From: a virus
Lineage: Duplodnaviria > Heunggongvirae > Uroviricota > Caudoviricetes
Virus record (IMG/VR): IMGVR_UViG_3300035520_000350
Coordinates: 32,466-96,465 of that record
DNA: 64,000 nt
Strand: one strand, 5' to 3'
The notes beneath the pieces are model-generated. The model saw nothing but the letters and a program-made list of their open reading frames with translations, searched no databases and was not told where the DNA came from. How positions within the stretch are numbered: the first letter of the stretch is position 1; each line of letters begins with the position of its first letter. Positions 2,466 through 53,930 of the stretch are shown here, one piece after another. A program made the translations under genes and the position numbers.

Positions 2466-3116
2466 ATGAATAACGAAAGGACAAGGTGTAATGATGAAGT
2501 ATTACAAAGTACTATTGAAGTTCTAAATAGTATTATAGAGGCTTTACAAGATACTGTAAATAACGGTAAAAGTCTTGGAGAATCTTGTAGAGAAAGAAAT
2601 CTCTTGTATAAAAAAGTAAGATCTTTAGTAATGGGTATCAGTAGTTACAATATTCTCATTAATGAGAACTTAAAAGAGATAGAGTTACCAGAAGAAGATG
2701 GATATGAAAAGTTATATAGAGAAATCTTTAACTTATCTAAGAGTGATAACTTTTCTTTTCCAGTAGACTTAAAAGAAACTATAGATATTGTTATTGATAA
2801 TGCCTTAACTGAAAGGGAGAAGAAGATATTATCTATGAGATATGCTTTAGGAGAATTTGAGTACGATTCTACCTTTGAAGAGATCGGGAAAGTATTTAAC
2901 GTAAATAAAGAAAGGATAAGGCAGATAGTATTAAAGGCTATAAGAAAGCTTAGAAATCCTAAAAGATCTAAAGTTATTAGAGATGGTATTGCTAGTTATA
3001 AAGAAGCAACAAGAGAGAACGAAATAATAGCAGAAGCAGCTAAAGAAAAGCGTATAGCAAAAATGCAGGAGTTTAAAGAACAAGTAAAGAATGGCTTAAT
3101 TACTAACGGTAATTAG
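2466..3116 (+). CDS. Sigma-70 region-4-like HTH protein. Region 2 is not recognisable.
   Basis: LTEREKKILSMRYAL...STFEEIGKVFNVNKERIRQIVLKAIRKLRNPKRSKV matches sigma-70 region 4.2 (RIRQIE.KALRKLR). The N-terminal 110 aa is unrelated to sigma region 2. Ends with TAG at 3114-3116. Confidence 0.65.
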   Translation: MNNERTRCNDEVLQSTIEVLNSIIEALQDTVNNGKSLGESCRERNLLYKKVRSLVMGISSYNILINENLKEIELPEEDGYEKLYREIFNLSKSDNFSFPVDLKETIDIVIDNALTEREKKILSMRYALGEFEYDSTFEEIGKVFNVNKERIRQIVLKAIRKLRNPKRSKVIRDGIASYKEATRENEIIAEAAKEKRIAKMQEFKEQVKNGLITNGN

Positions 3117-3395
3117 CAACAGATATTTGAATATCTAAGAGATAAACCGTTAGATGATAGTTTAGGTCTTAGTTCTAGAGCTTATAACTGTATTAAGAGA
3201 GGTACTTGTTATACGAACTGTGCTCAGTTTGTTACTTTAACAGATGAGACTCTTCTTAAACTTAGAAACTGTGGTGACGTTACTCAAAAAGAAATTAAAG
3301 GTAAGATACAAGAACTTCTCGATGAATACTATGGTGGGGTAGTAACGAGAAAAGACTTCTTAGATCTTATCGAGAAGAAGATTATAAAAGTGTAA
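3117..3395 (+). CDS. RNA polymerase alpha-subunit C-terminal-domain (alpha-CTD) like segment. It is in frame directly after the TAG of the sigma-4 ORF and has no ATG/GTG/TTG start. It is either expressed by stop-codon readthrough or is a pseudogene fragment.
   Basis: The translation QQIFEYLRDKPLDDSLGLSSRAYNCIKRGTCYTNCAQFVTLTDETLLKLRNCGDVTQKEIKGKIQELL matches the alpha-CTD helix-hairpin-helix (E. coli [48 protein letters not shown]). It spans 92 codons to TAA at 3393-3395 with no in-frame start codon. Confidence 0.4.
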   Translation, partial: QQIFEYLRDKPLDDSLGLSSRAYNCIKRGTCYTNCAQFVTLTDETLLKLRNCGDVTQKEIKGKIQELLDEYYGGVVTRKDFLDLIEKKIIKV

Positions 3396-3456
3396 TCTAA
3401 AAGACACTTTATAGTAACTTAAAGTACTATTTATAAAGAGAAGGGAGGAAGTAACA

Positions 3457-3549
3457 ATGGAATTACCTAAAAACATTATGGAACAATTTGGTGTAAAGGA
3501 AGATCCTTTTAAACCTTATGAGTATTTCGATGATGTCCGGTTACCTTAG
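3457..3549 (+). CDS. Tiny ORF, 30 aa (MELPKNIMEQFGVKEDPFKPYEYFDDVRLP).
   Basis: Strong SD GGGAGGAAG 6 nt upstream of the ATG. Confidence 0.25.
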   Translation: MELPKNIMEQFGVKEDPFKPYEYFDDVRLP

Positions 3550-5939: not shown

Positions 5940-5990
5940 ACAGAAAGAGCGTAGGGTATATACCCTACGCTCCCCTTTTATTTTTTATAC
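5940..5990. terminator. Bidirectional terminator shared by the convergent genes 5153-5938 (+) and 5985-12023 (-).
   Basis: GAGCGTAGGGTATATACCCTACGCTC hairpin with an A-run on the left and a T-run on the right. Confidence 0.6.
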
Positions 5991-8900
5991 TTTTGTATCA
6001 TCATATGGTATTCCAGCCATATCTTTACAAGTTCTGTCTAACTCAACCATTAACTTCTGTAAAGCACCATAAGTAACAGTACTTTGTACCATACGTTTCT
6101 GAATTGAAGTTACACTAACGAAAGCAGAGATATGTTCATTAGGTCTGAAATCTGTATAAGGTTCTTTACCTTCTGGTATTACCTTACTTATAATAGCCTT
6201 ATTAGCAGCATTGTAAGTAATCTTATCTCCTACTCCTAAGATATCAGTGTATTCGATATAGAACTCAATCAATATACTGTCATAAGACTTCTTAAGTTTA
6301 CCAGTAGCATCTAATGGATAATCTGCAGGTAAGTCAGTATACTCAATACCTTCTTCCTTAAGTTTACTCTTTAACTCATGTATTGGTTTTTCATAAGCTT
6401 TAACAAGCTTTCTTAAAGAATCAGACATCTCATCATAGTCTACTGTTCTGTATATCTTAATACCAGCTATTCTACCAGTAACTTCTGCCTTAACAGAATG
6501 TCTTCCTAATTCAGATACAGCTTCTTTATCATTAGCTAAAGCTTTAAGCAAAGCATTTACTTCCTCTTCATCATACGGAGTTTGCCATACAAGAAGATTC
6601 TCTCCTTGCTCTATATGCTGTCCCACTTTAACTACGTTATAGATATTAGTATCCTTATCAAGAACACAATCTACTTTACCAATGATGTCACAAGATAACA
6701 TCTTAGCCATTTCTTCTGTAATAACACCAGAATCTTCAAATCCCTCATCAGTATTGATAATAGCTATCTTAGCTAACTTACCTACGTTGTAAGCAAGATT
6801 ATCTGTCTCTCCTAAAGAGTTAGATAAGGATAAATGATCATATGCTAAGATCTGTCCAGGTTTAAACTTAGAACCTACTTTAAGCTTCTCATCAGCATCT
6901 AACTTAAGAGGTACATAGAATCCACCATCAGAGTTCTTCTCTATTGTTTCAGACAGATTGATGTAATCTTCTGTACCGTCGTCATACTGTATAATCATAT
7001 AACTTTCAGTGAGTTCTTTAACTACTCCCTTACTCTTAGCTTTATAAGCAAACTGATCTGAACAGATATAAGCTAAAGCTTCATCAGAACCATTAGTAAC
7101 TAACAAAGGATCTGATTGTTCTGTTCTTACAGCATGTTTAGAAGTCTGGATGAAAGACATAGCAATACGCATAGGATCATCATGAGTAGCAATAAATGGC
7201 ATTACTGCTTCAGTAGCTGTTAATACTTTAGCAGTATTCATATTATCTGTCTTACCCTTAGAATCTTTTACATATCCTCTTCCTCCCTCTATATTCATAT
7301 CAAGAGTAGCCTGACGTGTAATACCTACATTACCAGAGAAACCAGTACTCATACCTACTACACCAAGCATAGACTTATCATAAGTTCTTTTATCAAGAGA
7401 GTAAGATCTATCACTATTCATACCTGATAAACCTTTGTATGTAATAGCATTAGTAGTCTCTACATCATTAAGAAGATTATTAACAGAGTAGTCACTAGAT
7501 GTAGGGTCTAACATGATCTTATCTATGACAGCAGATTGCTTACAACTAAATGGAGCCTGAGTTCTATTATGTTTTAAGCTATTAGCATATATACCATAAG
7601 TTTCACTCATAACCTGATAAGTATAAGCTGCTACTAACTCATAACGCCTAGCTCTTCTTGAAGAAGTATCTGTATGTCTGATAAACTTATTATCCGATAA
7701 CAGATAGTTTGCATACAGTAATACAGAGATATACTCTGTAGGAAGTTTATAGTATTCAAGAGTTTCTTTAGTGATAGGATCTATCTCACAATCATAGAAG
7801 TTATCCAGACCATCAGCTTTAATCCTTCCACCATAATCTTCTAAGAACTCAAGATACATATTCTTATCATCCACCTCAGTGAATGAATGAGATAATGTAT
7901 CACAATCTTTAAAACCAGATAAGAGTAAAGAAGAGTTATAGTCTACTCTATATACTAAGTAACCATCGCTAAATCTTATCCAGTCTAAGCTAATGTTATT
8001 TCTATCCTCAGAAGAAAGTTTCTCTGTAAATCTATACTCTATATTAGCCTTCTTTAAGATCTGAGTCAATCCTTCAGAGTAAGAGCAAACAATAATAAGA
8101 GGAATCTCTTCTCCCATAATCTTAGCTCTAGTATAAGTAGAACCAGTAGCAGACTTAGCAGAAGAGTATAACTCATAGAAATCACTATTTGTCTCATATG
8201 TCATATCCCTTACTAAAGTATCAATGAAAGGAATGGTATCTTTGTTACTATAGTATACAAGATGCTTATTCTCCTTATCATAAGCATAAGGAGTTCCTAA
8301 GCCTTCATTTACTTCATATAACTCTCTAATCTGATCCTGATTGAAGTAGAAGATGTACTGCTTTGTTTCTATAGTAGTGAATACACCAGAGAGATCAATA
8401 TAATCTATAGGAAGGTTATATTTAGCACAGATTCTAGAGTTATTACCTTCTACAAACTTTATCTTGTTACCAGTATACTTACTAGCAGCTTTGATAAACC
8501 TACTTACATTAGGAAGAGATCTACCAGATACTGTATTGAATCTGGATATGATAATCTTCTTGTAGTTAGTAACTATCTGACAAGTATCTAAGTCTACCTT
8601 AATGATAGGCATATTGAAGAACTGTGTCTGAATAGTCTTAGCATTACCTCTAAGTAAGAATCTATCGTTTCTGATCTTCGGTATATCAAGTTTAATAGTA
8701 TATCTCTTTCCTCTATAGTCTTCATACTCTACAGTATACAGATCAAGTCTATCCTCAGAAGTAGAGTTATCTTCTGCTTTGATGTTTCTTACAGATAAAG
8801 GTCTTGATACAGTAGAGAAGTGCTTAAAGATATTAACTAAGTCCTTCTCTATATCGTAATTCTTATCGAAGTTCATATACTGCATATGATGCCACTCTTC

Positions 8901-11900
8901 GTTAGGAGAAGATACCGGAAGATTAGATACTGGTAATTCTTGTTTCTTCTTAGAGTTGTCTTCGTCTAAGATTTCTCTTATAGATCTTCCTTTAAGTTCT
9001 TTATCAAGAAGCTCTTTATCTAACTGAGTCATTCTCTCAGCACGAGCTACATTGATATTGACAGAATCATCTTTCATAGAATCTAATCCGGAAAGCAATT
9101 CCTTCATGTCAATATCATCTTCCATAGCATCTAAAGCATCATCTGTATCTACAGCATCATCAGCAGCCTTATCCACTTTATCTACTATCTGCTTCATTAC
9201 TTCCATCTCTTCTTCTGAAGAGTCTCTAGCAATGGAAGAGTTAGCAGTAAGTTTATCTACATCTGGTTCTTCTGTAGGTTTTTCTACTGTCTTCTTTTCC
9301 TTAGGCTTATCATCCTTCTTTACTTCATTAGGATTACGGCTTCCTTTAGAATTGACATTAGACGTTACTTCTACAGTATCATCTTTCTTAGTCTTCTCAT
9401 CCCTTACTTTCTTGTCTACAGCAGTTAAGTCTACTCCCTTAGAAGCTTCAATCCTATCATAAATATCTGTCTTAATAGCATCTTTAGTAGGAGTATCTTC
9501 CGTAGTATCAATATCAGCCTGATCAAACTCTTCACCCTTATTGATCTTGATAATGAAGTTCTTAAACTTCATAGCATTTCTCTTACTATTAGCAGTATCA
9601 GTAAAATCAACAGTGAAGTACTTGTTCTCACCAAAGAATACTACATCAATACCTTTGAAGAGTTTCTTTAATCCTTCTGGATCTCTGAGCATTAGCTCAT
9701 AGATAATAGAGATAGGATCGATATCTTCTCTGTATAACCACATCCTTGTATTAGGATTCTTATACCAGTCATTGATAGAGATAAAGACTGTAGTTCTCTT
9801 ATAACCAGCAGACTTGATTCTCTTATCATTGATAAGTCTATCAAGAAGCTCTTTATATAAACCAAAGCTACGCTTGATACTCCAATCATTGTTCTTGAAG
9901 AATGCTTGCTGATAGTAATACAAGTCAACAAACAGATTTCTCTGATCATATCTATCTAAGTCTACATAAGTATACTTGATATAAGGAACATCTGCTTTTA
10001 CTCTATCAAGTAACAGAGTAACTTCTTTACGCTTAACCATTCTTTCCTTATATAAGATTCTCTTAAGAGCTGGATCATAAGTAGCATCCTCTAAGATAGT
10101 CACATAGTCTCCGTTTATGATATAAGAACCTTCTTCTAAGGAACTAAGCATAGACTCAGACATACTTTCTTTATCTTCTGTATTGGAACTAGAAGTAGGT
10201 GTAGTAGGCTGAGGAATATTTACTTGTAACTGATCCTTTACTGTATCCATAAGATTCTTAGTCTTATTACGGATTCTTCCGTTATACATTTTAGTCTTGG
10301 TACTTGCTCTATACTTAAGACTATTAGTAAGACTAGAAGCAGTAATATCCTTAGACTCTACACATAAGTCCTCTGGTGCGTCAAATTCAGTTACCCCATA
10401 TCTTCTAGCTAAAAGATATAAATCGTTTAAATTTGACTCACTTAAGATTTTATAAGCACCTGATAAGGTATTCTCTGAAACCATATTGTAGAAAAACATA
10501 GCTCTTTGTGTAGACTTACCTGTAAAGCATTCTGCTACACAACCAGGGATTACAGTATGCTTTAACTGAGGAAATCTAAGAGCTACTAATCCAGCTATAA
10601 CAAGTTCTACTATACAAGTAGGATATGTGTCTGGATACTCTGTAATAAGACTAGAAATACATTCTACAGTAACCTTATTATCTTCTGTTTCAATAGACTC
10701 TACATTAGAAGCAATAAGAGATAACTCCGGAATATAGTCAAAGCCTAACTCTGTTTCAGACAGTATCTCTGAATACATATCAGGAGTAATAATCTGCTTA
10801 AGCAGATCTATATCCTGTACATAACCAGAGAATTTAATCTTATCATTGATATAGAGAGTATCAGTAGGACTAATAGTAGGGATAAGATATCCCTCTAATC
10901 CACTCTCTTTAGGTAATGGAACCCATGATACGGATTCTTCCATAACAAAGCTTAAAGCTTTCTTATGCTCTGGAGTAAGCTTACTATATACCTCTTTGAT
11001 ATCATAGAACTCTCCAGTAGTCATAAACTCATCTATATCTACAGTATCAAGATTTCCAGAGTAAGTATCAATAGCAGTTCCTACAAATACCTCTGTATAG
11101 AAACCATAGAATCTGTTTTCAGGAGGAAGATCTTTCTGTGTAGTAGTATCCGGATCATCCTTAAACATCTCTACATATCTTACTCCTGTATCATAAGCAG
11201 CTATAACTTCTAATCTAGCTTCTTCTCTACATTCTCTTATAGTACCTTCAAGATGAGATTCATCTGGTTCAAATCCTCCACCGGGAACTTTATAAGTACC
11301 ATCCTCTTTAAAGACTAAGTATACCTTAGTACCAGTCTTATCAAGAATAAGCATTTCTCCTCTACCTCTAAGAGGTTTCTCTACACCAGATACATTAACA
11401 ACACAGTTATATGTACCATCGTTATTATAGTAGCCTCTCTCAGAAGTAATATTGTAGGACTCTGTAAGTACACCAGATTCATTAGTATACTTATAATATT
11501 TCTTGAATCTGTTATTATCACCTACTTTAGGATAAGAATCCTTACAGAACTTACCGATAGCCCTATTAAGATTTTTAGCTAACTCTGCTTCGTCTTCCTT
11601 GTCTACATAGTTAAAGAACTTAATAGCAGACATTACATGAGCTTTACTATCTAAAGGATACTTTCTCTTCTTTGGTAAACCAAAGTCAGAACTCTTTAAA
11701 GCTTTACGCTCTGCCGCTGTCATTTCACATAAACTCTGATAGATATCTACTTCTCTACATTCTCTTACATAACTCTCTGTAACATCATCCACCTTATTCA
11801 TTACCTTAGAGCTAATGAAGTAGGTAAGATCTTTCTCAATATAATAAGACTGGAATCTTAGCTTATTGATAAGCATATTAGAGTTTAAGAGATTCTTAGA

Positions 11901-12023
11901 AGACTCATAGTTAGGAGTAAGTAAGTAGATAACAGAGTGCTTCTTCTTATCACCATCTACTGTTGGTAGAAACAATGGTCTCTTATAAACCTTAAGAGGT
12001 TTAAGATTCTCTAACAAAAGCAT
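5985..12023 (-). CDS. Giant 2012-aa protein. The N-terminal region carries a Nudix hydrolase box. The C-terminal ~680 aa resembles the C-terminal half of the RNA polymerase beta subunit (RpoB).
   Basis: The Nudix box GGGFEPDESHLEGTIRECREEARLEV at aa 248-273 (nt ~11205-11282) fits GX5EX7REUXEEXGU with the G replaced by R. GDKITYNAANKAIISKVIPEGKEPYT matches RpoB GDKMAGRHGNKGVISKIxPxEDMPY. GLSGMNSDRSYSLDKRTYDKSMLGVVGMSTGFSGNVGI resembles RpoB [47 protein letters not shown] before the ATG at 12023. Confidence 0.6.
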   Translation of the reverse strand: MLLLENLKPLKVYKRPLFLPTVDGDKKKHSVIYLLTPNYESSKNLLNSNMLINKLRFQSYYIEKDLTYFISSKVMNKVDDVTESYVRECREVDIYQSLCEMTAAERKALKSSDFGLPKKRKYPLDSKAHVMSAIKFFNYVDKEDEAELAKNLNRAIGKFCKDSYPKVGDNNRFKKYYKYTNESGVLTESYNITSERGYYNNDGTYNCVVNVSGVEKPLRGRGEMLILDKTGTKVYLVFKEDGTYKVPGGGFEPDESHLEGTIRECREEARLEVIAAYDTGVRYVEMFKDDPDTTTQKDLPPENRFYGFYTEVFVGTAIDTYSGNLDTVDIDEFMTTGEFYDIKEVYSKLTPEHKKALSFVMEESVSWVPLPKESGLEGYLIPTISPTDTLYINDKIKFSGYVQDIDLLKQIITPDMYSEILSETELGFDYIPELSLIASNVESIETEDNKVTVECISSLITEYPDTYPTCIVELVIAGLVALRFPQLKHTVIPGCVAECFTGKSTQRAMFFYNMVSENTLSGAYKILSESNLNDLYLLARRYGVTEFDAPEDLCVESKDITASSLTNSLKYRASTKTKMYNGRIRNKTKNLMDTVKDQLQVNIPQPTTPTSSSNTEDKESMSESMLSSLEEGSYIINGDYVTILEDATYDPALKRILYKERMVKRKEVTLLLDRVKADVPYIKYTYVDLDRYDQRNLFVDLYYYQQAFFKNNDWSIKRSFGLYKELLDRLINDKRIKSAGYKRTTVFISINDWYKNPNTRMWLYREDIDPISIIYELMLRDPEGLKKLFKGIDVVFFGENKYFTVDFTDTANSKRNAMKFKNFIIKINKGEEFDQADIDTTEDTPTKDAIKTDIYDRIEASKGVDLTAVDKKVRDEKTKKDDTVEVTSNVNSKGSRNPNEVKKDDKPKEKKTVEKPTEEPDVDKLTANSSIARDSSEEEMEVMKQIVDKVDKAADDAVDTDDALDAMEDDIDMKELLSGLDSMKDDSVNINVARAERMTQLDKELLDKELKGRSIREILDEDNSKKKQELPVSNLPVSSPNEEWHHMQYMNFDKNYDIEKDLVNIFKHFSTVSRPLSVRNIKAEDNSTSEDRLDLYTVEYEDYRGKRYTIKLDIPKIRNDRFLLRGNAKTIQTQFFNMPIIKVDLDTCQIVTNYKKIIISRFNTVSGRSLPNVSRFIKAASKYTGNKIKFVEGNNSRICAKYNLPIDYIDLSGVFTTIETKQYIFYFNQDQIRELYEVNEGLGTPYAYDKENKHLVYYSNKDTIPFIDTLVRDMTYETNSDFYELYSSAKSATGSTYTRAKIMGEEIPLIIVCSYSEGLTQILKKANIEYRFTEKLSSEDRNNISLDWIRFSDGYLVYRVDYNSSLLLSGFKDCDTLSHSFTEVDDKNMYLEFLEDYGGRIKADGLDNFYDCEIDPITKETLEYYKLPTEYISVLLYANYLLSDNKFIRHTDTSSRRARRYELVAAYTYQVMSETYGIYANSLKHNRTQAPFSCKQSAVIDKIMLDPTSSDYSVNNLLNDVETTNAITYKGLSGMNSDRSYSLDKRTYDKSMLGVVGMSTGFSGNVGITRQATLDMNIEGGRGYVKDSKGKTDNMNTAKVLTATEAVMPFIATHDDPMRIAMSFIQTSKHAVRTEQSDPLLVTNGSDEALAYICSDQFAYKAKSKGVVKELTESYMIIQYDDGTEDYINLSETIEKNSDGGFYVPLKLDADEKLKVGSKFKPGQILAYDHLSLSNSLGETDNLAYNVGKLAKIAIINTDEGFEDSGVITEEMAKMLSCDIIGKVDCVLDKDTNIYNVVKVGQHIEQGENLLVWQTPYDEEEVNALLKALANDKEAVSELGRHSVKAEVTGRIAGIKIYRTVDYDEMSDSLRKLVKAYEKPIHELKSKLKEEGIEYTDLPADYPLDATGKLKKSYDSILIEFYIEYTDILGVGDKITYNAANKAIISKVIPEGKEPYTDFRPNEHISAFVSVTSIQKRMVQSTVTYGALQKLMVELDRTCKDMAGIPYDDTKV

Positions 12024-12040
12024 GGCTTTAATACCTCCTT

Positions 12041-12068
12041 GTTGTAAAATTATACTGATGTTGAGCTA
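12041..12068 (-). promoter_or_regulatory. Conserved promoter-like element upstream of the giant gene. Minus sense reads TAGCTCAACATCAGTATAATTTT.
   Basis: The same element lies upstream of the minus-strand genes starting at 18451 and 53885. A TATAAT-like -10 box sits 3 nt after GCTCAACAT. Confidence 0.4.
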
Positions 12069-18064: not shown

Positions 18065-18451
18065 TTATGATTCATCATTATCTTCTGATGTATCAGAAGT
18101 AGTAAAGGTAGTATCCTTACTAATCATATGCTTATCTTTCATATATGATTCCATATAAGAACCACCAATCTTTACTACGTTCTCACTTGCCGCTTTAATT
18201 AAGTATCCACCAATAACTTCTCTGAAAGTAAGATGAATTTCTGAGATATAAGTATCAAGATACTGAATAGTACCTTGTCTGATGAAGTCTAAGGTTACGA
18301 TAACTATGAAGAACAAGTTAGCTAAGACAAAGATTAAGAAAGTAACGAATACTATCTTCTTACTGAACTCTTGTATCCAAGATAGGAATTCTATACTAGT
18401 CTTAATATTATCCTGACTAGACTGTTCTATTGACTTACTTCTTCCAAACAT
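18065..18451 (-). CDS. Single-TM membrane protein, 128 aa. Holin-like by position.
   Basis: One strong TM segment, KKIVFVTFLIFVLANLFFIVIVTL. It sits between the cell-wall-binding protein and the peptidoglycan hydrolase. Confidence 0.35.
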   Translation of the reverse strand: MFGRSKSIEQSSQDNIKTSIEFLSWIQEFSKKIVFVTFLIFVLANLFFIVIVTLDFIRQGTIQYLDTYISEIHLTFREVIGGYLIKAASENVVKIGGSYMESYMKDKHMISKDTTFTTSDTSEDNDES

Positions 18452-18473: not shown

Positions 18474-18498
18474 GAAATTATATGGATGTTGAGCAGTA
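18474..18498 (-). promoter_or_regulatory. Copy of the conserved promoter-like element. Minus sense reads CTGCTCAACATCCATATAATTTC.
   Basis: Lies about 25 nt upstream of the SD of the 18451 gene. Confidence 0.4.
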
Positions 18499-20213: not shown

Positions 20214-20460
20214 GATCCGCAACGGCAACGTGCAGTAAAGCACAATGTTGCTCAGTATTGTAATTGTGGTGTTATGTGCGTATTGGTAGCGTGATGGTAT
20301 GGTATAGCAAGGCACTGTTAGTACCGATTAGTAGAAAACACGTGATGGCTAAGTAAAGCATGATCAGGTATGGCTTAGTTACGGTTTGGTTAGGTATAGA
20401 CTCGTTGTGCTAGGGTTCTGACTAGTAATGCTATGTTCTGAGAGATTTATCACTCAAAGT

Positions 20461-20548
20461 GTTTACCTGATTGCAACCCTCAAATGTTTCAGGTAAACAA
20501 AAATAAAAATGGTGTGCTTGTATATCAAGCACACCATTTTATTTTTGG
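20461..20548. terminator. Two tandem hairpins, the second a bidirectional intrinsic terminator.
   Basis: GTTTACCTGA...TCAGGTAAAC, then AAAAATGGTGTGCTTG-TATAT-CAAGCACACCATTTT flanked by an A-run and a T-run. Confidence 0.6.
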
Positions 20549-20559
20549 ATCAAAAGTTC

Positions 20560-23500
20560 ATTACTTAAGTATCTGCAAAGCTTTATATGGCATTGATAGT
20601 ATTGCAATAGTCTAGTAAGGCATGGTATGGGCTGAGTGAAGTAGGGTTGAGTTGCGTAAAGCAAATGTACTTTAGAGCTATGATGTGTAGTGAATCGCAT
20701 AGGTGAAGTAATGTAGAGGTTGTATAGTTCAGTTATGGTTAAGTGGGGTGCTGTATGGAATGGTCATGTAAATGTATAATATCGTCCTGTTGTGCTACTC
20801 TAAGATATAATGTGCTGTAGTTGTCTAGTATTGTCGGGTGAAGTAAGGTATTTGCTGAGTATAATCGAGTAAAGTATTGTGAAGTAGAGGTAAAGTAGGG
20901 AAATGACGGTATGGCTAAGGTTTGGTATGGTAAAGATGTGTTTGGTGTTGTAATTGTATGGTGAGGTGGAGTAGTGCGTTGCTATGGCTTAGTGTAGCCA
21001 TGCTTTGTGACGTGCTGCTAATGATTTGTATAGTGACATGGAGTGGAGTAAGCAACTGCCTAGTTTAGTATCGTGAAGTCATGCGTTGGTGTTGCTTATC
21101 AATATGACGTAATGAATTGCCTAGGTGTAGTTTCGTTTGCCTTGTAAAGTAAGGGCATGGTGGAACACCATATTGTGGAGTAACTGTAAAGTTGAGTAAA
21201 GATAAGCGGAGTAAAGTTCAGTCAAGAAATGGAAAGGTTGCGTAAAGTGGCGGCTGTGCGGTAATGTTTTGTGAGGTGATGGTAAAGTAGAGTATCGCTA
21301 CGTACGGTGGTGAGATTGTATTGCCAAGAAATGACAAGTTTGGCTTTGTTATGTAGGGTCGTGGTGTAGTATAGATTCGTTGCGCATGGTGTTGCAGAGT
21401 CGAGGAAAAGTGCTGGAAGTATAGACAAGTTACGGTATAGAGCGGAATAGTTTAGTAAATGCTAGGTGTGGTAACGTCCTGTTTGTTAGATATTGTAATT
21501 GCATTGTTATGTTGGCTGATGTGAAGTAATGAGATTACTCGGTTATGTTTGATGATGTAAAGGTTCTGTGACGTTCAGTGGAGCTGAGTGTTGTTCAGTA
21601 AAGGTAAAGTGCGGATATGTTTTGTTCAGTTCAGTAATGGTGTCGTATCGTAAAGTTCTGTAATGGTACAGTTGCGTAATGTACTGCTTAATTCAGTAAT
21701 TGTGTCGTATGGTTGGGCTACTTAAGGTATTTGCTTAGTCAAGTGGTGTTAGCTTAGTAACGTCATGTTGTGGCATGTATTGCTGAGTTTAGGCAGTATC
21801 GTGATGGTGTATTACAGCGTAGTAGAGGATTGGTAAGGTAGAGCTTTGCATAGTATTGCTAATGAAATGCATTGACTTGTAATGTCTTGCAAATGTATTG
21901 TTAGGCAACTTGATGTATGGTTTTGTCAATGCTCGGTGATGTACTGATCAGCACTTCAAAGGTATGGTGAGTTGCAGCTAGTTCAGTAGAGGTAAGGTAC
22001 AGTTTTGTAGAATCTTGTATCGGAGAGGAAATGTAAAGTATAATGGCGCGATGGATGAGTAAGGTATTGATACGTAAAGTAATTGTGAAGCGCTCTATGG
22101 AATCGTTACGTCTAGCAAACTTTAGTAGAGGTAAGGTGAGGTGAGGCTTAGTGATGTGTCGTAGTGTAATAGTGAAGTGACGTCTCGTATTGAACGGTTT
22201 TGTCAAGCATAGGTAAAGTGAGGTCAGGAATGGTAAAGTTATGGTGTTGTTTTGTCTGTTAAAGTTATGTAAATGCAAGGTGAGGTCTAGCAAGTATTGT
22301 TTGTGAAGGTACAGTGTTGTGGAGTCACTAATGTATCGGCGAAATAAAGTCTTGTAAGGGTAAAGTTTGGTAGCATAGAGTTTCGTAAGGGTATAGTTTA
22401 GATTCGCGGTATAATGTGTTGTCCAGTATCTGCATGGTAAAGAAAAATACAGAAGAGTAAGGGTGAAGTGATGTGCAGATCGGTAAGGTGAAGCATTGTG
22501 TAGTATCTGAGTGGTAATGTTGGTTACGTAAGGTGGAGGTACAGTTGAGTAGAGCAATAGAACGTTAAGTTACGTAATTGAAATGATTAGCAAAGATAGT
22601 GATGCCAATCTATGCATTGCAATAGTATGGTGAAGTATCGTCAGTGCGGTAAAGGTACTGTATGGTGTGGTATAATTTGGTTGAGAAATTGTGTAGTAGT
22701 CTCTTGTATAGTAGTTGTGTAATAAGGTAGAGTTAGTAACGTTCGGTAAAGGTAAAGTACAGTTCGGATATGCATTGTAAATGTATAGTCGGGATGCGTA
22801 CCGAGTAGTCGTGTATTGTGACGGTATGATATAGTTACGTTACGGAAAAGTATGCTATTGTACGTGCGGTAAAGGTATTGTGAATTCAAGTATTGAAACG
22901 AAACGTATAGTAAAGGTAAAGTATTGCCGCGTCTCGCTTTGTATTGTATTTGTGCGGTAATGGTGTGGCGATGCATTATTTGGAAAAGTATCGTACCGAC
23001 AAAGTGATTTTTAGTAGCGTATCGTAAGGGTTTTGTGACGCAGGGTGACGTATAGTGTAGCAATTGCTGAGTGAGGTCATGATCTGTCAATGCGTAGTGT
23101 AGACAGGTATGGTGGTAGTGGAATAGTTTAGTCAAGTAAAGTGAAGCTATGAGACTGTGTAGTACATTCATGTTTTATTTAGCATTGCAACTGTAACCTA
23201 TAGCGATGTAATGCGTTGCTGTTGTAATGCAATGAATTGTAAAGCCATGCATCGTAACTGTTAATTGCTGTAAAGTTGTGTTAGGTTATGCTATTGAGCT
23301 GTATAACAAGGCTTTGTGATGGTCAAGACAGTTTAGTTCAGCAAAGGTATCGAATAGCCTAGTAAAGAAATGTGTAGTGGAGGTAACGTTTAATGAAGTT
23401 TAGACTCGTAATGGCATAGACAGTCTAGTAAAGTAAAGGTATAGTTTAGATAAGTCTAATTTAGTGATGGTAGAGCTTGAGATAGTTTTGTAACGTGAAT

Positions 23501-24880
23501 GTGAAGTGGGGCAAAGTCAAGTGTTGTTCAGTGCCTGCATGGTAAAAAATGTTTAGTTGCGGCAAAGTTAAGATAGTTATGTCACGCAGTTGTATAGTAA
23601 AGTGCGGATATGTAACGAATTGTTATGCTAAGGTATAGTACAGTGACATGCAGCGGGGTTGTGTCTAGCATCGTAGATGAAAAGTGATGTGGTGTTCTGC
23701 CAATGTGAAGTGGAGTGCCTCGATGATGGTTTTGTAATGTAGAGGTAAGGTGCAATAAAGTACTGTATAGTAAAAGCATTGGTAAGGTATTATAGGGTAT
23801 TGTATTATGCTGTATTTGATTAGTAAAGTTAACTCTGTATTGTAATTGTATGGGTAGTTGAGTTCCGTTCGGTATATGCATAGTCGAGAATAGTGCTGTT
23901 ACGGCATTGTAATTGTGTGGTAGTGTTGAGTTAAGTCTTGCAAATGTAGCTTGATGCGAGCTGAAGTATGGTTCAGTAAAGGTCAAGTGGAGCACAGTGA
24001 AGTTTAGTATCGCAATAGAGGAGTTATGCTATTGTAAGGATTAGTCTTGCCAAGAAAAGGTGAAGTCTTGCAGCGTAACGTAACGTACTGTAATTGTGGA
24101 GTTATGTGTGTATTGGTAGTGTGATGGTATAGTGCAGTAGAGCAATATTGCGTAAATGTAGAGTAAAGCAATGTATTATTTAGTAGAGGTACGGTCGGGG
24201 CAATGTTAAGTAGTGTGTTGCTATTGTAGAATGTGGTAAGGCGCTATGATGTTTAGTAAATGTAAAGTATCATGCTGGCAGTTAGGTGTGGTAACGTAAA
24301 TGCAAGGTGAAGCCTATTTCAGTAATGGTAGTGTATATGAGAAGTATAGCAACGTAACGTCTGGCTAAGCTAATGAAATGCAGAGTAACGTATTACAATG
24401 AACGAATTGCATAGGTAATGTGACTTCATGTTCTGTGATGTGAAGTGATGGTAAAGTGCACTAAAGTGTGTAGAGTAATGGTGTAGTAAAGTACGGTAAT
24501 GATGTGTGAGGTAAATGTAAAGTTACATGAAGTATGATGTAGTAATGGTGATATGATGTGAAGCAGAGACAAGTATTGCTAAGGTAAAGAAGTGCGTAGA
24601 ATGGTAACAGTAAAGTCTTGCTACGTAGATTAAAGTCATGCAATGGATAGGTGACGTTGAGTGGTGCATTGGTAGGGTAAAGTGGGGTAAAGGCAGTGTA
24701 GTTCTGTTACTGAACGGTGTGGTGGCGCAGCGCAACACTTAGTAAAGGTGATGTGATGTTCGACTGTGTTTTGTTATGGTGGAGTGCTGTGAGATGACGG
24801 AACGTGGAGGTAAAGGCTTGGTTATGTGTAATTGAGTGATGAGTTGTAAATGTAGTATAGAGTTTTGTTCAGCAAACAAA
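20560..24880. repeat. Non-coding island of about 4.3 kb. The plus strand is strongly C-depleted (G/T/A-rich) and built from degenerate short repeats (GGTAAAGT, GGTGAAGT, GTATTG, TGTAATTGTG) with an apparent ~1.1 kb higher-order periodicity.
   Basis: The 17-mer GTAAAGTGCGGATATGT sits at 21604 and 23597. CAGTNYCTGCATGGTAAA sits at 22424 and 23529. AGTTCGGATATGCAT...TAGTCG sits at 22761 and 23861. TTGTAATTGT occurs in at least 6 places. The only ORFs are minus-strand ORFs with T/L/Y/H-rich nonsense translations. Confidence 0.7.
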
Positions 24881-24935
24881 AGAGCTAAGGATAATATCCT
24901 TAGCTCTTTACTTCTCACTCTTCTTTATTTTTTAG
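24878..24935. terminator. Bidirectional terminator. It ends the minus gene 24932-25729 and would also stop plus-strand transcription leaving the repeat island.
   Basis: 14-bp stem AAAGAGCTAAGGAT/ATCCTTAGCTCTTT with an A-rich left flank and a T-rich right flank. Confidence 0.55.
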
Positions 24936-28900: not shown

Positions 28901-29032
28901 GGCGAGATTCAGATAGTAGAAGATGAAGACGGTAAGCTCGTTTGGGAATGTCCTTGCTGTGGAAACAGAAATCAGGACACAATGAACGTAGCTAGACGTA
29001 CATGTGGATTGACTGCCAATAGTCCACGTTAA
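25988..29032 (+). CDS. nrdD: Anaerobic ribonucleoside-triphosphate reductase (class III RNR, NrdD), interrupted by an intein.
   Basis: N-terminal ATP-cone (KIIKRSGVEDTFDPSKIDIAIRKA...). C-terminal 4-Cys zinc ribbon CMNCGFDGE...CPCCGN, then a glycyl-radical-like RRTCGL near the C-terminus. SD AAAGGAG. Confidence 0.75.
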   Translation: MYMKIIKRSGVEDTFDPSKIDIAIRKANDTTLDDSDKLNDEQIKGIVDYIINYAQDCGRSLNVEEIQDLVEERIMDAGAFEVARSYITYRYKRALVRKTNSTDDAILSLVSCNNEEIKQENSNKNPYINSTQRDYIAGEVSKDITRRLLLDEDIWDAHENGLIHFHDADYFLQPMTNCFHSDTEFVTDKGVVRFGDCHEGERIFVRNITGNYVPAMVHKYGKQKMQTVTFRSCRTVKTVRCTYNHRWVLKDGTITESLKVGDSLYPTVDTTNTPINNPFMFCLGFVLGDGSDFAGSNISEPTGVRVRLCGNKTQYLPHFTLAGFDISKEKFHNGDMSVTFSKYPLKKNFINGFGWRFLSLSDKIDLFKGYYAADGNTLSNGIATANHILAQMIREISALAGYYITSENFEIRDTNFKKGASLWTFRFMKRQSINRCWKVESIDRSDYHTYDAWCVEEPSTHTFTLGNGMVTGNCCLVNLEDMLQNGTIISETMIETPKSFSTACNVATQAIAQIASNQYGGQSITLSHLAPFVDVSRKKIIRKVIEEFETLGIEYTDEMVNNVTESRVKEEIKRGVQTIQYQVITLMTTNGQAPFITVFMYLDEVPEGQTRDDLAAIIEETLNQRYLGVKNEKGVYITPAFPKLIYVLEEDNIHEDSKYWYLTQLAAKCTAKRLVPDYISEKKMREYKNEDCYPCMGCRSFLTPDRTVRNSAKALNYEEGKHKYYGRFNQGVVTINLVDVACSSNGDEDEFWRILDERLELCYRALMARHKRLEGTVSDVAPILWQNGAYARLEKGEVIDPLLHGGYSTISLGYAGLCECTVRMTGVRHTDPKGTPFALKVMQRLNDACAEWKAKEDVDFSLYGTPLESTTYKFAKCLQKRFGKIPGVTDKNYITNSYHVHVTEQMNAFDKLKFESQFQVLSPGGAISYVEVPNMQNNIPAVLSVIQFIYDNIIYAELNTKSDYCMNCGFDGEIQIVEDEDGKLVWECPCCGNRNQDTMNVARRTCGLTANSPR
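26519..27406 (+). mobile_element. Intein of 296 aa with a LAGLIDADG homing-endonuclease domain, inserted after HFHDADYFLQPMTN of NrdD.
   Basis: Begins with Cys (CFHSDTEF) and ends ...HTFTLGNGMVTGN, followed by the +1 Cys (CCLVNL). Two LAGLIDADG-like blocks, LGFVLGDGS and LFKGYYAADGN, lie about 85 aa apart. Confidence 0.7.
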
Positions 29033-50037: not shown

Positions 50038-52686
50038 TTAGACAATACACTCTACGTCAATACACGGTTCAAGACTATCTGTAGCCTCATTATATCTATT
50101 TCTGATACTGATAAACTCAGGTACCACATGAGGATCTGTAGATTCAAGAAGCTCTATGTGTTGTACACCTAACCAGAAGTTGTTGAAGTACATAAACTCA
50201 ATGTATACAGCAGCAGAACCATACTGATTCTCAAGCTCTGTAATAAGGTTAGGAATATGAAGACTACCGGTATCACTAATGTCTTCTACATAGTCTTTTA
50301 CATATGCTATCAAAGCATCCTTAGTATAGATATCAGAAGTACTAGCAAGCTTAGCTCTGAAGTTCATACTAATATCTACTCTATCAAGCATAGTATTCTG
50401 GGCATCTCCAATACTGAATGTCTGGGATGGTCCATAACTATTGAAGAACTTAAGATCTATATCAAAGTTATTCTCCACTTTGGTTAAGCAATCGTTAATA
50501 TAAGCTCTCTTTGTATTGAGAGCATCAAGGAATAACTTAACGTAACTCTCATCGAGTACATAATGAGCGCCAAGTAATGGAAAACTACTAAGTTTGAATA
50601 CTGTATCAGACTCAGCTTCAATCTTGGTATTCATCATATTGGTGTAGTTATAGAATAGACTAAGTCCTCCATCTATCTCATATCTATTGGTAACTGAATA
50701 TCCATCTAATCCAGGAACCATAGATTCAAGATCATATCTACCATGCTCTGAATCAAACTTAGCCAAAGTATAGAGATAAGCCTTAGGAGAACTCTCAAAA
50801 TATCCATAGTTCTTTTCTGTAGCAGAACCAATGATGCCAAGGTTAAGTAACTTGATATAGTTATCATTATCCAGACCATTATCAGTTTCAAGATTAAGCT
50901 CCCAAGTAGAGGTATAGTCTGTATAGTTGAAATTAGTCATTGTACACTCAGCCCATCTATAAGGAGTATTCTCTTTATAGATAACTATAATACACTTCAT
51001 ATTGTTATTGATAGTGGTTAAGTTATTGTCTGAAATCTCATAGTACATCTGCATATCTTCTTCTACAGACTGCATAAGAGAGAAACTGAATGTATAGACG
51101 TTTCTATCTGTAAGAAGCTTTCTTACAATATGATTCTTATTAGCGACAAACTGAAGATCACAGTTATCGTTAATCCAATCAAAGACAAAGTAACTATCAT
51201 AGTTTACATTAGTCATATAGAAAGCTGCATACAAAGGATCTTTACAGATAGCTATATTGAATACAGAGATATAGTAAAACATCTGATTGCTGAAGTACTC
51301 ATCAGAGTATAACTCAGGTATCTCTGATTCATCAATTACATAAGCTACTTTAGTATCTGCATTGTAAGCAAAGTAAGAACCGGCTGGAAGAATCATTCTA
51401 CCATCTTCACACTCAAAGCAATATGAAGAGCTTATATCTACTCTTATATCACAAGTATTGGTAGGAATGATATTTCCATACTCATCTTTCATCAAGAAGT
51501 AAGCATACCAGATTCTCTCTAACTGATTATCTACCTTCTTCTGTAATTGAAGTCTGTTCTCATCAGTATTGATAAGATTGAAGTAGTTATTCAAATCAGA
51601 TTCGGTAGTTAAGTATCCTCTAGACAATGCAAACTTAGGAGTTATCTCCTTAAGCTCATCAGAACTCTTCTTATCCTTACCATCGTAAGAATCAGTCTCT
51701 GGAAGTAAGTAACAGTTTATATTACTATATCCAAAGTCTGCTGATGTAAAAGCAGCGAATATAGCTTCTGTTGTATCGTATTCAAAATTACCACTAGCTC
51801 CTAATGTAGTCTGAGCTTCTACTGTTACATCTGCATTTAATCCAGGTGTGTAAGAACTAGAATCAAATGTGATTCTTACAGTGTGGTCATTAAGATACAG
51901 ATACCAACAATAGTACTTAACTCCAGAATCTACAGGAGATCCATAGAAGATTGGAGTAAGTCTAGTAGTATTGCCATTTTCTGTTACTTCCACAAAGAAA
52001 TCTGCAAGCTGATTAGTAAACTCAAAAGTGAATGATCTGTTATCAATAATACTATTGGTAACAAGCTTATCAGAAGTCCACTCAATGGTTACCTGTCTAA
52101 GTGTAGCTTGGAAGATAAGATACTTTGTATTATAAAGATTAGCCACTACAGGCTGCTTTAAGTATGGAGAAGATACATCAGATAATGCATTCTCATAAGT
52201 CATATCATATCTTGCTGAGTATACAGGAGAAGTCATCTGAGCTGTTTGATTCTTCTGTATGATTACGTCGTAATCGAAGTGAAACTCATAAAGATCTATA
52301 TAGATAGGAGTAGTCCTATCAAATACAAATCTATTGTTTTTCATATACTTATCAAGATCTGATACTTTAATACCAATGGTTACCACTATAGAAGCTGGTT
52401 GAGCATTAATATCAGTAACGTTCTGATATATAGCATGAGTCAGGATATTCTTCTCAAGCTTAGCTCTAGTAGGAAACATCTCGTTTCCAAGCTCACCTGT
52501 CTGTATAATAGCTGACTGAATCTTCTTAGATTCAAGATCGCCTATGAATCCAAAGATACCAATAGATAGAGTAGTCTCATCTTCGTCTTCGATGTATCTC
52601 TTCTTAAGATTATCTACCATCTCTACTATATTGTAGATATCAGTATTCGGATTCCATTCACTTGTTATAGTTGTATCAGAAGCCAT
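50038..52686 (-). CDS. Large hypothetical protein, 882 aa. Probably a structural virion protein.
   Basis: Long ORF whose start overlaps the stop of the upstream gene, so the two are translationally coupled. Confidence 0.5.
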   Translation of the reverse strand: MASDTTITSEWNPNTDIYNIVEMVDNLKKRYIEDEDETTLSIGIFGFIGDLESKKIQSAIIQTGELGNEMFPTRAKLEKNILTHAIYQNVTDINAQPASIVVTIGIKVSDLDKYMKNNRFVFDRTTPIYIDLYEFHFDYDVIIQKNQTAQMTSPVYSARYDMTYENALSDVSSPYLKQPVVANLYNTKYLIFQATLRQVTIEWTSDKLVTNSIIDNRSFTFEFTNQLADFFVEVTENGNTTRLTPIFYGSPVDSGVKYYCWYLYLNDHTVRITFDSSSYTPGLNADVTVEAQTTLGASGNFEYDTTEAIFAAFTSADFGYSNINCYLLPETDSYDGKDKKSSDELKEITPKFALSRGYLTTESDLNNYFNLINTDENRLQLQKKVDNQLERIWYAYFLMKDEYGNIIPTNTCDIRVDISSSYCFECEDGRMILPAGSYFAYNADTKVAYVIDESEIPELYSDEYFSNQMFYYISVFNIAICKDPLYAAFYMTNVNYDSYFVFDWINDNCDLQFVANKNHIVRKLLTDRNVYTFSFSLMQSVEEDMQMYYEISDNNLTTINNNMKCIIVIYKENTPYRWAECTMTNFNYTDYTSTWELNLETDNGLDNDNYIKLLNLGIIGSATEKNYGYFESSPKAYLYTLAKFDSEHGRYDLESMVPGLDGYSVTNRYEIDGGLSLFYNYTNMMNTKIEAESDTVFKLSSFPLLGAHYVLDESYVKLFLDALNTKRAYINDCLTKVENNFDIDLKFFNSYGPSQTFSIGDAQNTMLDRVDISMNFRAKLASTSDIYTKDALIAYVKDYVEDISDTGSLHIPNLITELENQYGSAAVYIEFMYFNNFWLGVQHIELLESTDPHVVPEFISIRNRYNEATDSLEPCIDVECIV

Positions 52687-53885
52687 TAGTATTTGTCACT
52701 TCCTTTCCATTTCAATTTATATACTTTACCCCCAGGAGCATTAGAGTCAGATGCAGATGTAATGTAAGCTGCTTGAGTAGGTCTATTGTCCATACGATCC
52801 ATTACATCATTATATACATCTATTCTATACTTAAGAGAGTCATAGTATGTCTTACTAAGAGCATTAAAATCATTCAGTATAACTGGGTCCATATCATCAA
52901 AGAATGCACACTTGAAACTGATAGAGTAAGATAACCCAGAATCAAATGACTCAGAAGAAAATACATCTCTTGGTAAACTCTTAGGCATCACTCCATAGTA
53001 TTTAGCATAATAGATAATGGTTTCCATATCTTCTGCTACTAAAAATTTATATATAGCAAACTGATCATGGAGTACCTTATCTTGTATATAACCTTTCCAA
53101 GGTCCTATAGTACCATGGTGTTTAAGAGTCTCGTATTCCTCATATGCTTTAAAGAACTGGTATACTGGAAGATACTTAGTGTCTTTAAACTCAAGATCAA
53201 AGTCGAAGTTATCATTACTGGCTTCACTAGATCCTCTATATGAGAAACCCACTCCATACATATTGTTTGGAGTTTCTATAGTCTCTGCATCAAGACTAGG
53301 CACAGCAATGTTACTAATACACATATTCTCAAGCAAGTGATTGAATGGATCATTCTTTTTACCCTTGGTTAACTGAAGACACTTTATTACATCCATATAT
53401 TTGGTCTTAAGCTCTTGCCAATAAGGAATCTTTGTAAGAGCACTATTCATAGAACCAGTTAGTGTTCCAGAAGTTTCGTTTCTTGTATAGATATTCAAGT
53501 CCGGTTTAGTAAAGAATAGAAACTCTCTAGTGGTAGTCAATGTCTCATATGGATTGAACAGACCAAAACGATATCTACGATTGAAGATATCAATGTCTTT
53601 TCTCTGGTATAATCCATGTGATCTCCTAATGAAGTCAAAGATATCATCTGCATTGTTTTCGATATAAGTTGTATTTGTATACTTAGCATCTAGAGTATTA
53701 GTACTATACTTACCATCAGACATACTACCTGTAACTGTCTTTGTTGTATTCTTTTTGGTAGTTGTAGTAGTCTTCTTCTTAGTACTACTGGTGGTAGTTT
53801 TCTTCTTTGTTGTAGAAGCTTTCTTCTTGGTAGTTGTAGTAGTCTTCTTAGTTATATTTTTTACGTTAGTCTTCTTTACAGCCAT
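52686..53885 (-). CDS. Hypothetical protein, 399 aa, with an N-terminal Thr/Lys-rich low-complexity tail.
   Basis: N-terminus KKTTTTTKKKASTTKKKTTTSSTKKKTTTTTKKNTTKT. SD AAAGGAGG. Confidence 0.5.
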   Translation of the reverse strand: MAVKKTNVKNITKKTTTTTKKKASTTKKKTTTSSTKKKTTTTTKKNTTKTVTGSMSDGKYSTNTLDAKYTNTTYIENNADDIFDFIRRSHGLYQRKDIDIFNRRYRFGLFNPYETLTTTREFLFFTKPDLNIYTRNETSGTLTGSMNSALTKIPYWQELKTKYMDVIKCLQLTKGKKNDPFNHLLENMCISNIAVPSLDAETIETPNNMYGVGFSYRGSSEASNDNFDFDLEFKDTKYLPVYQFFKAYEEYETLKHHGTIGPWKGYIQDKVLHDQFAIYKFLVAEDMETIIYYAKYYGVMPKSLPRDVFSSESFDSGLSYSISFKCAFFDDMDPVILNDFNALSKTYYDSLKYRIDVYNDVMDRMDNRPTQAAYITSASDSNAPGGKVYKLKWKGSDKY

Positions 53886-53907: not shown

Positions 53908-53930
53908 GTTATATTAATGTTGAGCTAGGT
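53908..53930 (-). promoter_or_regulatory. Copy of the conserved promoter-like element. Minus sense reads TAGCTCAACATTAATATAACCAC.
   Basis: Lies about 15 nt upstream of the SD of the 53885 gene. Confidence 0.4.

Follow-up and report, generated by a model that had tools for sequence, protein, structure and literature searches.

What is a Nudix hydrolase doing at the front of a phage RNA polymerase subunit? The question is raised by a stretch of 64,000 nucleotides (nt) from the Caudoviricetes record IMGVR_UViG_3300035520_000350 (positions 32,466 to 96,465; hereafter the window), which encodes on its minus strand a protein of 2012 amino acids (aa). A first-pass annotation, made from the letters of the window, had described the product of this open reading frame (ORF) as a Nudix box combined with a part resembling the RNA polymerase (RNAP) beta subunit. 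Pfam, PHROG and structural modelling bear this out, as a true Nudix domain and a true homologue of the phage multisubunit-RNAP beta subunit are united in one protein, and we regard the identification of both the Nudix fold and the beta homology as near certain. The protein consists of a conserved leader, a slot holding cargo domains and a polymerase core (Table 1). We propose with moderate confidence that it is a virion RNAP N-beta subunit equipped with an N-terminal cargo slot, and that the Nudix domain is delivered into the host as a ready-made enzyme.

The polymerase core accounts for most of the chain. PHROG family 3148 ('RNA polymerase beta subunit') matches aa 815-2000 (E=1.7e-147) and a phmmer search of the Protein Data Bank (PDB) with the last 1199 aa retrieved mycobacterial RpoB (E=7e-8), so that the similarity to RpoB lies beyond chance; the Pfam Rpb2_6 model stays below its cut-off (18.2 vs 23.4 bits). 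In a BLASTP comparison, aa 1042-2002 align with aa 418-1417 of the 1418-aa beta subunit of Staphylococcus phage SA1 (QPI17140; 31% identity, E=4e-133), an offset that projects SA1 residue 1 onto residue ~625 of the query. Judged by this collinearity, aa ~625-2012 appear to form one complete jumbo-phage N-beta subunit. The first-pass annotation, which had assigned RpoB-like motifs to the last ~680 aa and spoken of a C-terminal half, was thus right about the homology and too narrow about its extent. Matches to 301 jumbo-phage records were obtained by tblastn against 50,697 phage records, always within aa ~1034-2005, and include phages of Staphylococcus, Bacillus (AR9/PBS1), Listeria and Fusobacterium, Yersinia phage phiR1-37 and phiKZ-like phages. 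The DPBB active-site lysine motif near the end of the chain presumably corresponds to GDKMAGRHGNK of bacterial RpoB, as the first-pass annotation proposed. The region preceding the beta-homologous body (aa ~625-1041) corresponds in position to aa 1-417 of the SA1 subunit, includes a Lys/Asp/Glu-rich low-complexity stretch (aa ~870-1030) and is entered by PHROG profile matches beginning at aa 779-815. A 'unique N-terminal region' of jumbo-phage beta has been described by Iyer et al. (PMC7824862).

Several features point to the virion rather than the non-virion polymerase of such phages. The chain stops ~70 aa past the DPBB lysine motif, as it should if virion beta is divided just behind the DPBB domain into N-beta and a small C-beta, an arrangement known from such phages (PMC7824862). 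The match in AR9 (BI022_gp188) is annotated as 'virion RNAP subunit'. The match in KTN4, a phage of the phiKZ species, is a 1451-aa 'virion-associated protein' (KTN4_219) encoded next to a structural head protein gene, which we take to be the equivalent of phiKZ gp178. In each listed phage record a single place passes E=1e-5 in the tblastn search, which suggests that the second, non-virion beta of those phages is far less similar to the query. The gene product is, by these comparisons, likely a virion RNAP subunit. It is very unlikely that the protein belongs to the non-virion (middle/late) polymerase instead, or that the fusion is an artefact of annotation or assembly. Such doubts could appeal to a virion assignment drawn entirely from homology and to the Rpb2_6 score under its cut-off, but the AR9 and KTN4 matches are virion-annotated paralogues found at a single place per record, and a beta subunit split just past the DPBB domain follows the virion pattern (PMC7824862). 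Against an artefact, the reading frame is uninterrupted over 2012 codons and the arrangement of leader, slot and core is common to 120 homologues. An assembly chimera is ruled out by an identical protein on an independent 41-kb Logan contig (SRR11794512_41586) and by a 99% identical copy among JGI proteins (P0001). No near-identical DNA was found in cultured phages, the gene neighbourhoods of relatives showed no obvious conservation, and Rfam gave no match near the gene. The statement of the first-pass annotation that the ORF lacks beta-prime and that the partner must lie outside the window holds, since none of the six frames of the 64-kb window contains a DxDGD motif and no other window ORF of at least 399 aa has an RNAP PHROG match.

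The Nudix signature had been placed at aa 248-273, and the box was confirmed at this site, starting at G249 and reading G-x5-E-x7-R-E-C-R-E-E-A-R-L. Relative to the consensus G-x5-E-x7-R-E-U-x-E-E-x-G-U, position U is Cys and the penultimate Gly is replaced by Arg, with REUXEE (RE-x2-EE) intact and all metal-binding and catalytic Glu and Arg residues present; from these conserved residues the domain is predicted to be catalytically intact. Pfam NUDIX covers aa 230-353 (profile positions 14-127 of 134, E=3.1e-6) and scores 27.6 bits, above its gathering cut-off of 21.1. When aa 186-645 were modelled with AlphaFold2 from a 30-sequence alignment, the predicted local distance difference test (pLDDT) score was >90 over most of the Nudix domain, and a Foldseek search of the PDB returned 348 chains at E<=1e-3, the 50 listed of which are all Nudix hydrolases. 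The box is therefore embedded in its surrounding fold, to which an N-terminal beta-hairpin extension carrying RGRGE is added.

The relatives of the Nudix domain span several activities. The best single-sequence match in the PDB (phmmer) is Bacillus subtilis RppH (E=9e-4), a profile search places lupin Ap4A hydrolase first (E=2e-10), ahead of MutT, RppH and Dcp2, and the fold search ranks DIPP1, ADP-ribose pyrophosphatase and RppH highest. Among viral structures, a stand-alone phage Nudix protein (A0A8S5UF84) with the automatic name 'RNA pyrophosphohydrolase' is closest, and NCBIfam yielded only sub-threshold NMNAT-Nudix matches. Read by eye, the Nudix domain contains neither the ADP-ribose-type Pro at +15/16 after the box nor the NADH-type SQPWPFPxS. 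RNA 5'-end processing and the hydrolysis of dinucleotide polyphosphates or of ADP-ribose/NAD-type molecules are possible activities. The first of these underlies an alternative in which the Nudix domain acts in cis on the nascent transcripts of the phage, removing NAD or NpnN caps or converting 5' triphosphates to monophosphates as an integral part of early transcription. In its favour, the domain is covalently linked to a catalytic RNAP subunit, the weak best matches are to RppH and Ap4A hydrolase, the closest viral structure bears the name just mentioned, and an HD phosphohydrolase is fused to virion C-beta in AR9-type phages (PMC7598289).

A role in cis is made less likely by the variability of the segment in which the Nudix domain resides. 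A search of 5.8 billion proteins identified 199 relatives, many of them on contigs of ~180-270 kb; architectures were counted in the 120 listed of these, mapped onto the query, a list that is biased towards Nudix carriers. Leader and core have nearly constant lengths in these proteins, and the segment between them ranges over more than a thousand residues (Table 1), shrinking to almost nothing (23-100 aa) in many relatives whose core is the same. According to Pfam scans of seven long inserts, the slot holds a beads-on-a-string array of NUDIX domains, one to three GNAT acetyltransferases, P-loop kinase-like domains, HAD phosphatases and DUF362 in varying order. The NUDIX domains fall into two sequence types, often with two per protein, and the strict G-x5-E-x7-RE-x2-EE box was found in 51 of the 120 relatives, 15 of which have two boxes. 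Two cultured-phage orthologues, those of SA1 (1418 aa) and of Fusobacterium phage JD-Fnp4 (1484 aa), contain neither DUF6582 (the Pfam family of the leader) nor Nudix, which marks the addition as a feature of an uncultivated clade. By this comparison, the first ~625 aa appear to be an add-on limited to a large metagenomic clade. A recurrent ~150-aa insert segment with conserved Cys and His residues (…GVCWDFVHYEAKWFK…PTH…) was also observed in P0002, P0043, P0052 and P0073; no Pfam match to it was found in the inserts of P0043, P0052 and P0073 (P0002 was not scanned), and a related segment in P0165 (aa 386-450) has a weak transglutaminase-like match (DUF553, E=9e-4). This segment may be a papain/transglutaminase-like cargo domain.

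Given this variability and the unrelated enzymes that share the slot, the Nudix domain is best viewed as an interchangeable cargo module and not as a fixed part of the transcription machinery. The strict box is missing in 69 of the 120 relatives despite the Nudix bias of the list, it is not obvious what GNAT, HAD, kinase-like or DUF362 domains would do at RNA 5' ends, and within the query ~260 residues, comprising linkers and another domain, separate the Nudix domain from the polymerase body. The coupling of Nudix function to transcription, by decapping or 5' pyrophosphate removal, which the first-pass annotation had put forward, is thus less likely in view of a hypervariable and often near-empty slot, and we consider action in cis improbable. 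At the level of the family, several unrelated enzyme domains occur in shifting architectures, as is characteristic of polyvalent proteins (Iyer et al. 2017, PMC5512222); the query itself contains two cargo domains only.

The leader that precedes the slot is strongly conserved. In an alignment of 32 sequences (aa 1-190), 18 positions are invariant, including M1, Y13, L19, P20, K27, P37, N53, Y60, F114, P117 and P123. Its second half contains a DUF6582-type domain with the motif FGLPxKRKYPLDxxxHVxSAIKFFNYV, which is nearly invariant in the alignment. Pfam DUF6582 (PF20223) matches aa 111-143 of the query with 22.2 bits against a cut-off of 27.3, and precomputed PF20223 matches exist for most homologues. 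The structural model of the leader is confident only at aa ~100-180 (pLDDT 77-90) and falls below a pLDDT of 50 over most of aa 1-99; aa 1-100 are therefore predicted not to fold alone, which would suit a segment that acquires its fold by binding a partner. A leader profile gave a chance-level match to PDB sequences (E=0.22), a fold search of the PDB with the leader model, which is poor over aa 1-100, returned nothing below E=2.9, and no second copy of the leader or of DUF6582 was found elsewhere in the window. Against 1.84 billion representative sequences, the leader profile retrieved 2084 proteins at E<=1e-3, of which 1397 also pass E<=1e-10. Many of the listed matches comprise the DUF6582 half only, sometimes in 2-4 repeats, within other proteins of ~850-1600 aa. 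Eight such proteins (among P0133-P0252) were scanned: six contain domains drawn from the same cargo set (GNAT, NUDIX, DUF362, HAD, AAA_33 and transglutaminase-like), two contain DUF6582 only, and an RNAP family match was found in none of the eight. P0246 has a ClpP/crotonase-like domain directly after DUF6582. Another of the eight, P0165 (L005 8001-12374), is encoded next to a gene for Cpn60, a hallmark of the jumbo-phage group (PMC7824862), which suggests that P0165 derives from another jumbo phage. DUF6582 thus appears to be a recurrent companion of multi-enzyme phage proteins and not a polymerase domain; a literature search found no description of it. The occurrence of the same enzymes on proteins without an RNAP match, together with the variability of the slot and the unrelated co-tenants of the Nudix domain, argues against a transcriptional role and for the logic of polyvalent proteins (PMC5512222).

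Besides the Nudix domain, the slot of the query contains a folded alpha/beta domain, here called module 2, which is present in about half of the listed relatives. It has no Pfam or PHROG match, and nothing corresponding to it was visible in fold searches with the model of aa 186-645, the lists being dominated by Nudix matches. It is followed by a basic, Ser/Thr-rich linker that ends with KES-MSES at the junction to the core, the boundary at aa ~626 being taken from the ends of high-scoring segment pairs. An internal translation start at Met622 or Met626 was considered and rejected, as several relatives have Leu or Ile there. Module boundaries, placed where BLAST alignments between relatives of different architecture end, lie in the query at aa ~84, 186, 361, 392 and 626. 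Four of these five coincide with x-E-S, namely TES (~84), NES/TES (~186), EES/KES (~361) and KES/SES (~626), and all four are located in or at the edge of low-pLDDT segments of the two models. Across the family, ES is the third most enriched boundary dipeptide (2.5-fold) after QE and VM, is found no more than 10 residues away from 38% of boundaries, compared with 19% of random positions, and has an observed/expected ratio of 1.49 in the N-terminal part vs 0.87 in the core. Head proteases of related phages cut after Glu, at A-x-E sites in SPN3US and at TFE-275, SQE-113 and SQE-122 in 201phi2-1/phiKZ (PMC5694885). By analogy, these data hint that the x-E-S linkers could be processing sites.

Such sites would also suit a different explanation, in which the first ~625 aa are an assembly propeptide that guides the subunit into the prohead and is then cut off and expelled, so that the Nudix domain matters only in the producing cell late in infection, for instance in nucleotide-pool sanitation or NAD/ADP-ribose metabolism. 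In 201phi2-1, a 275-aa propeptide is cut from virion beta, and fragments of this kind do not usually stay in the head (PMC5694885); the exposed Glu-Ser-rich linkers at four of the five module boundaries and a leader predicted to be unfolded on its own, as for a partner-binding segment, are likewise compatible with this explanation. However, pure propeptides require neither conserved catalytic residues nor arrays of up to ~8 enzyme domains, the mature SPN3US subunit keeps its N-terminal region (PMC5694885), and multi-enzyme polyvalent proteins injected by phages are an established pattern (PMC5512222). We therefore regard a mere propeptide as rather unlikely.

The timing of expression was addressed through a promoter-like element upstream of the gene. 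The sequence GCTCAACAT-N3-TATAA occurs in exactly three copies in the window vs none in 100 shuffles. All three copies are located on the minus strand, each followed after 20-27 nt by the ATG of an ORF that has a strong ribosome-binding site; the plus strand holds no copy, though most genes of the window are encoded there. AACA-N6-TA is present in all three copies and conforms to the consensus A(-11)ACA-N6-U-A/G(+1) of AR9 late promoters, which are served by the non-virion RNAP (PMC7598289). In L004, a relative whose orthologous protein is 51% identical, AACA-N4-TATAAT likewise precedes the gene. The conserved block directly precedes the TATAAT hexamer, in the place that the spacer takes in a sigma-70 promoter, and no TTGACA-like -35 hexamer was seen by eye in the three upstream sequences, for which no promoter scan was run. 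The element is accordingly read as a late promoter of a phage polymerase. The three copies reported by the first-pass annotation are present and one does precede the gene; their TATAAT context fits an AR9 late promoter rather than a sigma-70 promoter. By its sequence, then, the gene is probably transcribed late by the second, non-virion phage polymerase, which suits a virion component, and one of the copies precedes a virion structural gene.

Taken together, the favoured reading is that the gene encodes the large beta-like subunit (N-beta, with the DPBB domain) of the virion RNAP of an AR9/phiKZ-type jumbo phage, the host of which would be an anaerobic, low-GC bacterium, and that a ~185-aa DUF6582 leader and a slot with one Nudix and one alpha/beta domain have been placed before this ~1390-aa subunit. 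The subunit would be made late, assembled into the virion RNAP, loaded into the capsid and ejected with the DNA, as virion RNAPs are packaged and ejected in SPN3US, phiKZ and 201phi2-1 (PMC5694885). The Nudix domain would then be present in the cytoplasm of the next host ahead of any phage gene expression, either tethered to the polymerase or freed at the exposed Glu-Ser-rich linkers by the head maturation protease. Its most likely function there would be host takeover or counter-defence through hydrolysis of a nucleoside-diphosphate-X compound, candidates being RNA 5' triphosphates or caps and dinucleotide, ADP-ribose-type or NAD-type molecules. By analogy to these phages, delivery of the Nudix domain into the host is plausible. 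The N-terminal region of beta is removed as a propeptide in 201phi2-1 and retained in SPN3US (PMC5694885).

Several points weigh against this reading. If the N-terminal region were cleared as in 201phi2-1, the Nudix domain would never reach the host. The assignment to the virion polymerase draws on best-hit homology and on the annotations of cultured phages, and beta-prime and the other RNAP subunits were not seen in the window and lie outside it. No substrate class emerges for the Nudix domain from sequence or fold, the top matches being a mixture of Ap4A hydrolase, MutT, RppH, DIPP, ADP-ribose pyrophosphatase and Dcp2. In two relatives (P0042 and P0039), the box aligned at the position of the query's Nudix domain, in an alignment that joins both Nudix types, is degenerate, so Nudix activity seems to be dispensable in some lineages. 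Finally, the enrichment of ES is modest, derives from related sequences and could reflect the Glu/Ser-rich composition of linkers.

A broader version of the delivery hypothesis, which we put forward tentatively and as possible rather than probable, would have a large clade of uncultivated jumbo phages use the leader with DUF6582 as a general chassis for loading and ejection. Almost any enzyme domain placed after this module (Nudix, GNAT, kinase-like, HAD, DUF362 and others) would enter the capsid on the virion RNAP or on other carrier proteins; the head protease would free it at Glu-Ser linkers, and the resulting cocktail would be injected to serve takeover or anti-defence in the first minute of infection. 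In the present phage, the enzyme delivered would be a Nudix hydrolase that strips RNA 5' ends or destroys nucleotide immune or alarm signals.

Table 1. Features of the Nudix-polymerase gene, its upstream region and the three zones of its relatives; coordinates refer to the window.
Feature	Position	Strand	Extent or support
Complete ORF, 2012 aa, ATG start	5985..12023	-	Leader, cargo slot and virion-type RNAP N-beta core
Conserved N-terminal leader, aa 1-185	11469..12023	-	In 120/120 homologues, ~175-187 aa
DUF6582-type small helical domain with hairpin, aa ~100-180	11484..11726	-	Pfam, phrog_16160, model
Nudix hydrolase domain ('type 1'), aa ~191-362	10938..11453	-	Pfam, AlphaFold2, Foldseek
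Nudix box, aa 249-271: GGFEPDESHLEGTIRECREEARL	11211..11279	-	Strict box pattern
Module 2, folded alpha/beta domain, aa ~390-555	10359..10856	-	pLDDT >90
Basic, Ser/Thr-rich linker, aa ~556-624	10152..10358	-	pLDDT <60 over most
Jumbo-phage-beta-specific N-terminal region, aa ~625-1041	8901..10151	-	Conserved in 120/120 homologues
RNAP beta-homologous body including DPBB domain, aa 1042-2002	6018..8900	-	SA1, AR9, PBS1, phiR1-37 and phiKZ-type matches
DPBB active-site lysine motif GDKITYNAANK, aa 1932-1942	6198..6230	-	Aligns with GDKISFYGACK of the SA1 subunit
Shine-Dalgarno sequence AAGGAGG	12034..12040	-	10 nt before ATG
Promoter-like element GCTCAACATCAGTATAAT (AACA-N6-TA)	12049..12066	-	27-43 nt upstream of ATG
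Second copy of the element	18477..18494	-	Upstream of ORF 18065..18451 (-)
Third copy of the element	53908..53925	-	Upstream of virion structural protein ORF 52686..53885 (-)
Family zone: N-terminal leader			175-187 aa in nearly all of 120
Family zone: segment between leader and core			23-1414 aa, median 334
Family zone: C-terminal core			1325-1398 aa

The remainder of the window contains further features. A 1014-aa anaerobic ribonucleotide reductase (25988-29032, plus strand) is NrdD-like (E=6e-186, best match at aa 471-1008) and points to an anaerobic host. A 3599-aa ORF (35506-46305, plus strand), which is tape-measure-like at aa ~2480-3110 and contains an endolysin-like domain near its C-terminus (aa ~3285-3480), encodes a tape measure protein of great length that includes a lytic domain. 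Furthermore, the plus strand encodes a 216-aa ORF (2466-3116) with a precomputed Pfam Sigma70_r4 match (listed as L003 16928-17578) and a 513-aa protein (33412-34953) that matches PHROG 850 'RNA-binding protein' over its full length (E=7e-126). A tRNA-Tyr (GTA; 30102-30184, minus strand) is the sole RNA gene detected in the window. The region 20250-24900 (~4.6 kb) contains no plus-strand ORF of at least 50 aa, and on the minus strand only short ORFs with TTG or GTG starts. Its plus strand is G/T-rich, with a GC skew of +0.44 to +0.49 and many stop-containing words (GTAA, GGTAAAG); Rfam gave no match, and a hairpin followed by a T-run is located at ~20487-20545. This is apparently a long non-coding stretch, which is unusual in a phage.

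Several elements of the arrangement described here are already known, namely multisubunit virion RNAPs, the long N-terminal region of beta with its variable processing, the HD-C-beta fusion, and polyvalent proteins including those of the N4 type. Like the virion N-beta subunits of jumbo phages (AR9 BI022_gp188, KTN4_219, SPN3US gp241, SA1 QPI17140), the query has a collinear core of ~1390 aa that includes the phage-specific N-terminal region, the DPBB lysine motif and a beta split shortly after the DPBB domain, but it carries ~625 extra N-terminal residues that SA1 and JD-Fnp4, the two tested, are without. The HD-C-beta fusion of Bacillus phages AR9, PBS1 and vB_BpuM_BpSp (PMC7598289) likewise places a phosphohydrolase-type enzyme on the N-terminus of a virion RNAP subunit, the enzyme being HD and not Nudix, the subunit C-beta and not N-beta, and the addition a single fixed domain and not a variable multi-domain slot. 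The propeptide of 201phi2-1 virion beta (cleaved at TFE-275) and the capsid targeting sequences of the T4 type resemble the query as N-terminal extensions on proteins inside the head with a possible cut after Glu; they are not known to hold enzymes, unlike the query, in which cleavage is a possibility only. The stand-alone phage protein A0A8S5UF84 (188 aa, Myoviridae sp. ctcyQ27) represents the same Nudix subtype (31% identity, root-mean-square deviation 1.9 A over 167 columns) in free form, whereas the Nudix domain of the query is fused to a polymerase. A literature search found neither a virion N-beta carrying Nudix nor a conserved DUF6582 leader combined with a hypervariable multi-enzyme slot.

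A parallel in logic is provided by the polyvalent proteins of phages and conjugative elements, among them N4-like virion RNAPs that bear MPTase, ART, lysozyme or PBECR domains (Iyer et al. 2017, PMC5512222). As in the family of the query, unrelated enzymes, GNAT and NUDIX among them, are combined in shifting arrangements; their carrier travels with the DNA (PMC5512222), as that of the query would. The carrier differs, being a subunit of a multisubunit, cellular-type RNAP and not the single-subunit N4 enzyme, MuF or portal, and no DUF6582 leader was found in the carrier modules reported so far. Provided that the cargo is delivered, this clade repeatedly swaps enzyme modules at one position of an essential, injected polymerase subunit, the modules would constitute a natural catalogue of activities wanted in the cell before the first phage gene is read, and the slot would offer a ready-made design for loading foreign proteins into capsids. 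The family also provides a testable context for the role of the N-terminal region of jumbo-phage virion beta and of DUF6582, and would extend the idea of the polyvalent protein from single-subunit polymerases of the N4 type to multisubunit polymerases of the cellular type.

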